Of a stretch of 64,000 bases of DNA, positions 36 through 60,342 are shown one piece after another. Both the position numbers and the translations under genes were made by a program. The DNA lies in contig CAXHJY010001495.1 of NCBI GenBank assembly GCA_964016885.1, positions 25,970 to 89,969 of the forward strand, given 5' to 3'. Origin of the DNA: Eledone cirrhosa. Lineage: Eukaryota. Below the pieces are notes generated by a model that was given only the letters and a program-made list of their open reading frames with translations, did no database searches and was not told the DNA's origin. Every line of letters starts with the position of its first letter. Position 1 is the first letter of the stretch.

Positions 36-151
36 ATAGGAACGAGTAGGACCCCGACGGCTGAGCTCAAGCCGTTTCGACGGCTAATTCTGTCCAGAAT
101 TAGCCGTCGAAACGGCTTGAGCTCAGCCGTCGGGGTCCTATTCGTTCCTAT
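36..151. repeat. Near-perfect palindrome (57-bp arms, 2-nt loop), probable PLE terminal-repeat remnant
   Basis: ATAGGAACGAGTAGGACCCCGACGG..TTCTG|tc|CAGAA..GGGGTCCTATTCGTTCCTAT, followed by (TA)n. The same family recurs at about 13182-13320 and 22043-22155. Confidence 0.85.
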
Positions 152-167
152 ATATATATATATATAT

Positions 168-340
168 CATTTCATTTCATTTCATTTTACGTCCGCTTTT
201 TCCCTGCTTGCAAGGGTGGGACGGGAACTGATTCTGGCTTGATTTCTACAGCTGGATGCCCTTCCTAACACCAACCTCATTTACAGTGAGTGCTGGGTGC
301 TTTTTTGCCGTGGCACCTCCACGACCACTTTGCAGTGGAA
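168..340 (-). mobile_element. RTE-type LINE/SINE 3' end fragment with (GAAAT)n tail
   Basis: Shares CTACAGCTGGATGCCCTTCCTAACACCAACCTCATTTACAGTGAGTGCTGGGTGC with the 3' UTR of the RTE at about 32990-33050. Confidence 0.75.
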
Positions 341-689
341 TGATATGGACCCCAGTCCTATCATCTCATTTCTACAGCTGAGTAAACTGGAGCAATGTGA
401 AATAAAGTGTCTTGCTTAAGGAAACAACACATCACCCGGTCTGAGAATTGTACTCACACACACACACACACACACACATATATATATATATATATATATA
501 TATATATATATATATATATATATATATATATAAATAAAGCTTAGCAATATCTTTCAATGCGAGTAGAACGATGTGACACAAAACCTGTAGAAGGTTCATT
601 TGTTTTGATCGGCGAGATTTGAACTGAGAGAACAGAGAGCCAAAACTAATAGAGCGACACCTTTTATCTGACGGTCTAACAACTCAATT

Positions 690-1165
690 CTCTGCCTTAA
701 CATAGAGTGACGTCGTCCAGACAGGGGAAATTGCTTTCCAACTTCTTTTCTCGAATAAGATTGTCTATAATTTGTTGGAAACCCTGTCAAACCAGAGATT
801 AAGATGTTTGAATTCAAACAAGTGGCTAACTACCTCCAAAGGGGCAAATACTTTACCACTGAATGCAGCTCAACACAGTGGCATGCACCAAATAAGTCGA
901 TAGCGTTAATTACCTTACAAGATTTGTGTTACCTACATTATCTAAGATGTGTGACGACCAAACGTCTAAGTAGGTGAATCTATTGATAGTTCCAGAGTTG
1001 TCAACTACTAAACTATTTATTTGCTGTTACCATCAACGACATGTACTTGCTGGAGTGAATCACTTCGTTATGTCTTCTCTAAACATTTTATTCAGTTTCG
1101 GTCGAATAAACTCAGCACGATAAATTAAGGTGACAAGATTTCACAACTACATGTTTATTATATGG
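690..1165 (-). pseudogene. Decayed Ty3/Gypsy reverse-transcriptase fragment
   Basis: Manual translation across frameshifts gives EFIRPKLNKMFREDI, LVVDNSGTINRFTYLD, AIDLFGACH, LFEFKH and GFQQIIDNLIREKKLESNFPCLDDVTLC, collinear with Gypsy RT motifs IDYSxTINRFT, IDLxSAYHQ and FQRxMD..YLDD. Confidence 0.7.
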
Positions 1166-56987: not shown

Positions 56988-57416
56988 ATTTGTGTAATAT
57001 TGCCAGAATTAATGACAGAACACACTCACTGTTTGGTTGGTTTTCTCTTTTCGCTTCTGTGTCTTTTATATCGGTAATCTAATTTATTCGGTCCTCAATG
57101 TTGCCATTGACTGACCAAGTATAACAATATCTGTTTCGACACACGATTTCATATCAAAAACCTCACAAAACTAATTCATCGCCGTTATATATTTATATAT
57201 ATATATATGAATTAATAAAAACAATGAAATAAACACAAAGAACAAGTTCTTTATATTAAAAAATTCATCATTTTACGATCGTTTCTGGGATGTATATGTG
57301 TGTGTTGGTATGTATATCATATAGATCTATGTAAAAATATTACAAATTATCAGAGGAAATATACATACCTTCACATATACATATATATATATATATATAT
57401 AGTTTTCGTATAGAAG

Positions 57417-57467
57417 AGCTTCTACAGGACTAGAACTGTTTCATTCGTGAGAAATCATCAGGAAGCT
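57417..57467 (-). ncRNA. Type I hammerhead ribozyme with all three stems
   Basis: AGCTTC-CTGATGA-T-TTC tcac GAA-T-GAAACAG ttctagtc CTGTA-GAAGCT. Confidence 0.85.
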
Positions 57468-57950
57468 GACTGTCCAAGTAAATTTGGTGGCATTTATAAC
57501 TTTTCTGGTGGTAGGAGAGGGTGGGGAGTGGGATGAGTGGGGGTCATTGGTTGAAAGAAAAGGGAATTCTTTAAAAGCTAATTCTTTAAAGCTATAATTT
57601 ATATTTAGAGTGACATAGGCAGAAAGAATTCTATAAACAAGTTCAAATTGGAGTGCCACTCCTTATATTTAAGTTTCTCTTAAGCTAACAATGCCTATAT
57701 TTCAGGTGTCTACAAGATGGTTGGAGGTCAGTCATGGTTGGTGGGTTTAATGAAAGGGGAATTCTTTGAAAGCTAATTCATTAAAGCTTTACTTAGAGTG
57801 ACAAAGGCAGAAAGAATTCTATAAACAAGTTCAAATTTGGGGACACAAGTAAATACACACACACAAACACACATACACACACATAACTATCTCCAGATAT
57901 ATAGACATATACACATATGGTGGCTGCCAACTCGTTTCGAGTACGGCCAC

Positions 57951-60342
57951 TATATATATATATATATATATATATATATATATATATATATATATATATA
58001 TACATGTATATATATATATATATATACATGTATATATATATATATATACATGTATATATATATATATATATACATGTATATATATATATACATGTATATA
58101 TATATATATATATATACATGTATATATATATATATATATATATACATGTATATATATATATACATGTATATATATATATATATACGTGTATATATATATA
58201 CATGTATATATATATGTATATATATATACATATGTATATATATATACATGTGTATATGTATATATATATACATGTGTATATGTATATATATATACATGTG
58301 TATATGTATATATATGTATGTATATGTATATATATATACATGTATATATATACATATATATATATATATATACATATATATATATACATGTATATATATA
58401 TATACATGTATATATATATATACATATATATATATATACATGTATATATATATATATATACATATATATATATATATACATGTATATATATATATATATA
58501 TACATGTATATATATATATATACATATATATATATACATGTATATATATATATATATACATATATATATATACATGTATATATATATATATATACATATA
58601 TATATATACATGTATATATACATATATATATATACATGTGTATATATATATATATATATATATATACATGTATATATATATACATATATATATATATATA
58701 TATACATGTATATATATATATATTATATATATATACATGTATATATATATATATATATACATATATATATATATACATATATATACATATATATATATAT
58801 ATATATATATATATATGTATATATATATATATACATATATATATACATATATATATACATATATATATATATACATATATATATACATATATATACATAT
58901 ATATATATATATACATATATATATATATACATATATATATACATATATATACATATATATATATATATACATATATATATATATACATATATATATACAT
59001 ATATATATACATATATATATACATATATATATATATACATATATATATACATATATATACATATATATATATATATATATATACATATATATATACATAT
59101 ATATATATATATATACATATATATATACATATATATATACATATATATATATATATATACATATATATAAAAGAATAGAGGTGTAACACACAAGTTATTA
59201 TATATTGGTAAACGGAATAGAAAATGCTGACAAATTGTTCACAGTTGAAAAATGGTTTAATTAGGAATAAAAGAGTATTAGTGATTGTATGGGTTAGTAT
59301 TCAGTTGTGGTTTAAAGTTTTTAAGTTTTTACCGGTTGCGCATTTCTAAATGCTTTTCAAAAATAATTTTGAGATAGAGTGTCCGTGCTGTTTGCTCTGA
59401 TCAGAGCAAACAGCACGGACACTCTATCTCAAAATTATTTTTGAAAAGCATTTAGAAATGCGCAACCGGTAAAAACTTAAAACTTTAAACCACAACTGAA
59501 TACTAACCCATACAATCACTAATACTCTTTTATTCCTAATTAAACCATTTTTCAACTGTGAACAATTTGTCAGCATTTTCTATTCCGTTTACCAATACAT
59601 ATATATATATATATATATATATATATATATATATATATATATATATATATATATATATATATATATATATACATATATATATATATACATATATATATAT
59701 ATACATATATATATATATATATATATATATATACATATATATATATATATATATATATATACATATATATATATATATATATATATATATATATATATAC
59801 ATATATATATATATATATATATATATATATATATATATATACATATATATATATATATATATATATATACATATATATATATATATATATATATATATAC
59901 ATATATATATATATATATATATATATATATATATATATATATATATATATATACATATATATATATACATATATATATATACATATATATATACATATAT
60001 ATATATACATATATATATATACATATATATATACATATATATATATATATACATGTATATATATATATATACATGTATATATATATATATACATATATAT
60101 ATACATATATATATATATATACATGTATATATATATATATACATATATATATACATATATATATATACATGTGTATATATATATATATAGGTGTATATAT
60201 AAATACATGTGTATATATATATATACATGTGTATATATATACATGTATATATATATACATGTATATATATACATGTGTATATATATATATATATATATAT
60301 ATATATATAATTACATGTATATATATATATGTATATATATGT
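57951..60342. repeat. Two (TA)n-rich expanses flanking a palindrome
   Basis: About 57951-59168 and 59598-60342. Confidence 0.96.
59203..59597. repeat. Loopless palindrome, about 197-bp arms
   Basis: Centre GCTCTGA|TCAGAGC at 59400/59401; arms differ by one T in a run; the left arm extends about 35 bp further. Confidence 0.93.

Follow-up and report, generated by a model that had tools for sequence, protein, structure and literature searches.

The sequence examined here is a single 64-kb window (the whole stretch that was analysed, to which all counts refer) from Eledone cirrhosa contig CAXHJY010001495.1, and the features of interest in it are Penelope-like elements (PLEs) and a series of inverted modules lying among microsatellites. 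The window consists of AT-rich animal DNA, dense in (TA)n, (CA)n and satellites, with a short interspersed element (SINE) family and an RTE-type long interspersed element (LINE) remnant (the SINE and RTE labels are our own reading). An earlier note made from the sequence had listed 11 inverted modules, here M1 to M11, and had proposed for them a consistent 'tails-out' palindromic architecture of retroelement origin with 3' ends outermost; four modules absent from that note, namely M12 (8395-8679), M4b (7839-8001), M1c (13182-13316) and element B (52188-57188), were added. Inverted repeats were located by self-comparison of the window after microsatellite masking, followed by arm alignments. 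They were found at all 11 positions, nine of them strong (arms of 52-1232 bp and 98-100% identity, except M3 with about 90% and indels) and two weak (13922-14028 and 50729-51148). Significance was assessed with 300 shuffles for seven stretches, both weak modules included, and all seven exceeded 300/300 shuffles.

The longest modules are recognizable as coding elements. M5 and element B each encode a reverse transcriptase (RT) with a C-terminal GIY-YIG endonuclease (EN) in one open reading frame (ORF). A Pfam scan covering 5 frames placed the GIY-YIG domain of M5 at the cutoff (22.7 versus 22.6 bits) with a weak RVT_1 match, and gave a weak RVT_1 match only for B, whose protein is 63% identical to that of M5 across RT and EN. 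There were 246 homologues, and the longest retroelement protein has its best named match, at 66%, in an Octopus vulgaris protein, from which a cephalopod host is likely. The linker has the form CX4CxxC (CIDKKCITC in M5, CTNRKCIIC in B), the endonuclease motif VYSIRCTEGQC...YIG with a conserved downstream His is present in the M5 and B translations and in the alignment (CCHH type), and DKG is replaced by DKS in B. Minimal hammerheads lie 3' of the stop codon on the coding strand in M5 (8995 - and 11858 +) and in B; as this holds for both M5 copies, both outer ends of M5 are 3' ends. In element B the order is a tail-less 3' end, the ORF, an upstream pseudo-long terminal repeat (pLTR) with a tail that continues into the body, and, in inverse orientation, a 72-bp copy whose end is the tail. 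The features by which EN+ PLEs are recognized (pLTR, 3' hammerhead and, as optional parts, inverted copy and tail) are found in M5 and B, which are C-terminal GIY-YIG PLEs with a hammerhead in the 3' untranslated region, an inverted 5'-truncated copy and a tail at one end. Neptune/Nematis elements, for which PMC8557442 gives a CX2-5CxxC linker between RT and EN and a CCHH-type endonuclease, share with M5 and B a GIY-YIG domain at the C terminus (two internal cysteines, histidines downstream), the CX4CxxC linker, the 3' hammerhead and the (TA)n target; on these motifs M5 and B are putative members of one or the other of these two clades. M10 is the only short module homologous to the 3' end of an ORF-bearing PLE, and the window holds no parent element for the others. 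M10 consists of two older 3' ends that belong to the M5 family, split by a SINE (~50882-51062) inserted between 12-bp direct repeats, so the description of at least ten unrelated modules went too far.

Just upstream of the RT frame of B, an asparagine-rich (AAT/AAC) segment at 55090-56100 (-) is disrupted by stops and frameshifts; N-rich inserts similar to it have been described in Penelope elements of Adineta (PMC3846280). A repeat family with members at 51564-52175, 6074-6156 and 13524-13717 has short direct repeats starting the copies at 51564 and 52162, and B abuts its end. A third PLE at 62931-64000 (-) extends past the window end and gave no Pfam match; its endonuclease linker is CxCX5C (CNCHLPDRC), the form that PMC8557442 gives for the Hydra clade.

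The inverted modules were compared for polarity, using hammerhead motifs scored with two home-made descriptors against 200 shuffles each. The 3' ends face outward in seven of the 11 modules, firmly in M5 and M10 and at motif level in M3, M7, M8, M9 and M11, and no module is firmly reversed; polarity cues gave no clear result in M1, M2, M4 and M6, where neither descriptor found an outward hammerhead motif. Outward hammerhead-like motifs occur in M7, M9, M11 and M12 (0, 0, 0 and 1 of 200 shuffles, respectively) and in M8 (5 of 200, with the other descriptor), while in M3 the evidence is a half core only; strand skew gave no usable polarity cue. Both ends lie within 60 bp of a microsatellite in 9/11 modules (the left end of M1 being outside the window), compared with 20% of complex bases within 65 bp, a proximity that is not independent because the modules had been chosen by that criterion in the first place, and the right end of M7 is 287 bp from any microsatellite. 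That one arm is often 35-60 bp longer was borne out, a one-sided extension of 35-59 bp being present in seven of the 11; it is absent in M2 (3385-3498) and M9 (22321-22625), and M4 (4571-4780) has an extension on both arms. Loops are 0-11 nt in six modules. Of the 52 islands that lie between microsatellite tracts, 11 have terminal inverted repeats, a figure that does not include M1 and element B; single-arm copies exist for the M1 family (22043-22155) and the M3 family (13355-13455, a solo 3' fragment with tail). The head-to-head layout is common in the window and not universal, and 'consistent' was too strong a word for it.

When family members were aligned in element sense, all four multi-copy families (M5/M10/B, M3, M1 and M4) were seen to stop at two fixed points, tailed or tail-less, each entering a microsatellite. 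Two such fixed 3' termini with an optional tail are the PLE signature; M2, M6, M8, M9, M11 and M12 are single-copy in the window. Tails measure 35-79 bp in the window, and in all four asymmetric tailed cases with assignable arms (M5, M3, M1c and B) it is the shorter arm that carries the tail. The long arm of M5 holds no tail sequence, its 57-bp tail being present on the right, shorter arm only, and in B and M3 the tail continues into the body of the tandem unit, as is required by a model with two start sites. M1 and M1c are joined at different positions, and of the three junctions inspected (B, M3 and M1c) the two readable ones, in B and M3, each show an overlap of 3 nt. The unit of ~516 nt at 3879-4418 in M3, with its pLTR-like partial tandem and hammerhead half core, is a candidate non-autonomous PLE; the layout of M3 (ORF-less, pLTR-like tandem, inverted tailed copy) follows the same plan as element B.

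Much of this structure has been described before. According to Craig et al. (2021, PMC8557442), a 5'-truncated copy in inverse orientation is often found in PLE insertions, together with a tail of 30-40 bp at one or the other end and a bias towards (TA)n, and a partial tandem forming the pLTR with an adjacent inverted copy is the canonical EN+ PLE structure (PMC8557442 Fig. 2; Pen2a_Av, PMC3846280), the inverted-pLTR description being repeated in PMC8969392 and PMC3681739. Head-to-head was given as the most frequent arrangement by Arkhipova et al. (2013, PMC3846280), who noted junction palindromes and proposed self-priming. The architecture, the one-sided tail and the (TA)n preference are already published for PLEs, and what the window presents is a known structure in new families. 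B and M3 match the canonical insertion part for part (pLTR, inverted copy, tail, head-to-head order, (TA)n bias). The window differs in that its tails are 35-79 bp rather than 30-40 bp, many of its units are only 100-500-bp near-perfect ORF-less hairpins, and the tail is on the short arm in 4/4 cases, a rule not stated in the available portions of PMC8557442 and PMC3846280. Pairs of minimal hammerheads on opposite strands, 100-700 bp apart, were ascribed to truncated PLEs by Cervera and de la Pena (2014, PMC4209133); their size range and opposite-strand arrangement are those seen here, and the portions of that paper available give no polarity, loop size or tail side. As shown in vitro by Frangieh et al. 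(2024, PMC11167929), the protein of Poseidon PAc from Anolis carolinensis cleaves both strands of AT-rich DNA and extends each of them, with two RNA start sites bounding the tail. That system and the window have in common an AT-rich target and two fixed 3' termini with the tail between them; on the other hand M5 and B carry the CX2-5CxxC linker that Penelope/Poseidon elements lack, the window tails are without an AC-rich stem-loop of significant stability, and the Poseidon PAc work, in the portions available, does not reconstitute inverted insertions. The origin of PLE inverted repeats is stated to be open in both PMC8557442 and PMC11167929. In the open-access literature we found no explicit account of short head-to-head PLE hairpins or of PLE twin priming, the older primary papers lying outside that scope. 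L1 twin priming uses both ends of a cut; it turns round an upstream segment and leaves the 3' end in a single copy. In the window, by contrast, both arms include the 3' end. The window contributes very short hairpins at high density, tails reaching ~79 bp and the short-arm tail pattern (n=4), a modest mechanistic lead.

Taking these observations together, we consider the following reading probable as a whole: the long modules are head-to-head pairs of 5'-truncated PLEs in (TA)n, the short palindromes likely represent early-terminated forms of this product, and the pairs probably arose from priming by both cut strands. The parts of this reading differ in strength. That most of the modules are of PLE origin is held with high confidence: such an origin, with 3' ends at both outer junctions, which the earlier note had put forward in general terms, is demonstrated in the elements that have ORFs and is likely for the majority of the short modules. 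The short ORF-less palindromes are likely to be tiny versions of PLE head-to-head insertions. Dual priming as the source of the pairs is favoured somewhat less strongly. The PLE protein would cut the (TA)n target and both strands of one cut would prime reverse transcription of the element RNA, one cut end starting at the tail-less RNA site and the other at the tail site, after which the two cDNAs would be joined at their truncated ends via short overlaps; if both stopped near the same template point, a near-perfect hairpin would result. Loops of 0-11 nt would need a common template break, annealing at a short palindrome in the template, or fold-back. Dual priming at two sites accounts for the outward 3' ends, the one-sided tails and the microsatellite context. 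Only tentatively can this be taken further, to a dimer of two RTs priming both (TA)n cut ends at two fixed sites on one RNA, in which the tailed cDNA trails and ends shorter. If so, a tail on the short arm should be a genome-wide rule, a hairpin should form when a single template break halts both cDNAs, and many cephalopod hairpins that look like MITEs (miniature inverted-repeat transposable elements) would form a large class of aborted retrotransposition products. A genome that has about a dozen young examples in 64 kb would allow dual priming and fold-back to be told apart by counting which arm bears the tail and whether junctions vary.

A first alternative keeps the PLE origin and makes the second arm by self-priming: the cDNA or antisense template folds back and serves for copying, and resolution of the hairpin by the endonuclease leaves a one-sided tail. 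Self-priming was suggested in the Discussion of PMC3846280 and the tail was attributed to endonuclease resolution in PMC8557442, and the loops of 0-11 nt in 6/11 modules are expected from fold-back. A fragment with a hammerhead (13057 -) has at its far end, at 13120-13169, a 25-bp zero-loop hairpin that duplicates the sequence next to it and not the distant 3' end; this hairpin looks like a true fold-back, and both routes may operate. What speaks against self-priming as the general route is that in M5 (8797-12113), M3 (3521-4418) and M1c (13182-13316) the arm-plus-tail of the short arm is not continuous in the long arm and so cannot be a copy of it; element B alone is compatible, since its long arm contains an internal tail. 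As a fold-back copy is limited to the content of the first cDNA, the short arms of M5, M3 and M1c need a second priming on RNA, and short-arm tails without a long-arm template in three cases favour two priming events over simple cDNA fold-back. In addition, both strands are extended in vitro and the tail is set by RT start sites (PMC11167929). The earlier note had left dual priming and fold-back side by side; dual priming fits the asymmetric modules, simple fold-back fails in the three just named, and we regard self-priming as an unlikely general explanation.

A number of observations nevertheless weigh against the dual-priming, PLE-based reading. Loops of 0-11 nt are unexpected if two cDNAs are truncated independently, the spacer is the same in M4 and M4b, and 4/11 modules are without assigned polarity. 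Both hammerhead descriptors were composed after the sequence had been seen, and they disagree, M9 and M12 scoring only with the first and M8 only with the second. An inward match is present in M11 too (4 of 200 shuffles), and the best motif of M6 is inward, with a non-canonical core and no stem II (0 of 200 with the first descriptor, 125 of 200 with the second), a weak hint of opposite polarity. No hammerhead family appeared among the 150 of 235 Rfam matches listed, which were sub-threshold and of the miRNA hairpin type. The short-arm tail pattern has n=4, with the polarity of M1c assumed from its tail, and M6, M8 and M11 each have an extension that occurs only once in the window and is hence not a proven family tail. 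Nine tails, taken in the presumed sense strand, showed no significant folding (z -1.5 to +1.4). The flanking inverted copy was absent at 78/78 related loci (77 metagenome, 1 genome), mostly on contigs so short, ending at the element, that they are not informative; many of these loci, identified by related proteins, have direct terminal repeats and a few have (TA)n ends.

The ORF-less short palindromes M2, M4, M6, M9 and M12 might instead have no relation to the adjacent PLEs and be TA-targeting DNA transposons of the foldback kind or MITEs. Like MITEs, the short modules are ORF-less with inverted ends and TA flanks, M2, M9 and M12 abut TA flush at both ends, and M2, M4 and M6 offer no polarity cue. 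The strongest point is M4 and M4b, which have a uniform length and interior with a fixed spacer, a feature that the earlier note had named as the mark of true MITEs; this similarity could possibly come from local duplication, given similar neighbours. Unlike MITE termini, the ends of the modules are in general not flush or fixed: one-sided extension is seen in 7/11, flush ends occurring in M2, M4, M9 and M12, and extensions of 35-79 bp together with single-arm family copies are unlike terminal inverted repeats. Junctions vary between M1 and M1c, length and interior are not uniform in the M1 and M3 families, M9 and M12 have outward hammerhead-like motifs, and no transposase frame was recognized among the ORFs (5 frames being scanned against Pfam). 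We consider the MITE explanation improbable, and in genomes of this kind some short palindromes flanked by TA may have been wrongly classed as MITEs. That the palindromes are fold-back sequencing or assembly artefacts is very unlikely on internal sequence grounds, for while the arms of M5, M9 and M11 are essentially identical, the mirroring ends at the element ends and does not enter the unique flanks, several arm pairs differ by substitutions and indels, the tails are family sequence missing from the mirror arm, and M10 contains a SINE with its flanking direct repeat. A search of sequencing runs listed 15, of which 12 contain part of 8790-13800 (best share 0.67), matches at run level that do not count as evidence for the palindromes.

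Table 1. Inverted modules and their parts (positions in the window; M1-M11 follow the list of the earlier note, M4b, M1c, M12 and element B are additional)
Feature	Position	Strand	Description
M1	36-151		57-bp arms, 56/57 identical; loop 2 nt; left extension clipped by window edge (73-79 bp in family copies)
M2	3385-3498		52-bp arms, 51/52 identical; loop 10 nt; without tail
M3	3521-4418		Arms ~320 bp, ~90% identity with indels
M3, left part	3521-3881	-	Short inverted copy carrying 41-bp tail
M3, right part	3879-4418	+	ORF-less partial tandem, unit ~516 nt; pLTR with tail inside; half core CTGATGA, 4394 (+)
M4	4571-4780		73-bp arms, 100% identical; 63-nt spacer; tails on both arms; in TG/CA tracts
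M4b	7839-8001		Second M4 copy; spacer as in M4; 41-bp tail on left only
M12	8395-8679	+	50-bp arms flush in (TA)n; 185-nt spacer; hammerhead-like motif at 8518 (+)
M5, palindrome	8797-12056		1232-bp arms, 100% identical; spacer 796
M5, long arm	8797-10835	-	5'-truncated PLE: C-terminal half of RT plus GIY-YIG (ORF 9297-10835); hammerhead 8995; without tail
M5, short arm	10825-12113	+	Inverted copy; ORF remnant to 11556; hammerhead 11858; 57-bp tail 12057-12113
M6	12219-12456 (arms 12219-12416)		91-bp arms, 89/91 identical; loop 6 nt; 40-bp right extension
M1c	13182-13316		M1-family copy; left arm 73-bp tail + ~8 nt; right arm ~57 nt without tail
M7	13922-14006 (listed as 13922-14028)		Weak 23-bp stem, 20/23; hammerhead-like motif 13981 (+); only left side near (TA)n
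M8	21515-22028 (listed as 21564-22028)		228/234-bp arms, 224/228 identical; loop 3 nt; 49-bp left extension
M8, motif	~21891	+	Hammerhead-like with one core change
M1-family single arm	22043-22155	-	Fragment with 79-bp tail; no inverted partner
M9	22321-22625		147-bp perfect arms; loop 11 nt; without tail; hammerhead-like motif 22490 (+), 8-bp stem I, poor stem II
M10	50729-51148		Diverged head-to-head 3' ends of M5 family; arms only 74% alike; 59-bp left tail
Element B	52188-57188	-	Near-full PLE; 793-aa RT-EN frame 52707-55088; hammerhead 52429
Element B, upstream part	56907-57116		pLTR plus tail
Element B, upstream part	57117-57188		Inverted 72-bp copy with 59-bp tail
M11	59168-59597 (arms 59203-59597)		197-bp arms, 100% plus one gap; loop 0; 35-bp left extension
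M11, motif	59441	+	Variant hammerhead-like; homologous to 12629 (-)

Around M4 and M4b, three segments recur in the same order ~3.2-3.5 kb apart (2233-2475/5775-6017, 4576-4731/7842-7999 and 4912-4950/8064-8102, at 99, 95 and 87% identity, respectively); M2 and M3 occur only in the first series, and either local duplication or repeated co-insertion may be involved. The right arm of M4 has a tail and (CA)n absent from M4b, which were possibly copied later from the left arm. Further hammerhead-like motifs at 8290(-), 12629(-), 13057(-), 50477(+), 51472(-), 57461(-) and 60494(-) lie in fragments beside (TA)n that have no inverted partner and are likely to be solo PLE 3' ends of several more families. 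The heptamer GAGTGCT is present at 8157(-) and 60376(+), and GAGTACT lies within the M1-family tail. An exact 38-base pattern of the M1 family had 0 matches in metagenome contigs. Some PLE-type RT-EN sequences (L078; protein P0093) are in records titled as bacterial metagenome-assembled genomes and are likely eukaryotic contamination. Elsewhere in the window there is a LINE remnant at 33157-34563 (-), which has RVT_1 and whose RT region includes a PHD finger, and several tandem arrays: a homogeneous 26-bp array (15805-16925), arrays of 123 and 99 bp built on one related unit (17593-18940 and 34958-35793, respectively, also matching 20920-21032), and an 11.7-kb array of a 39-bp unit at 38.4-50.1 kb with long open frames.

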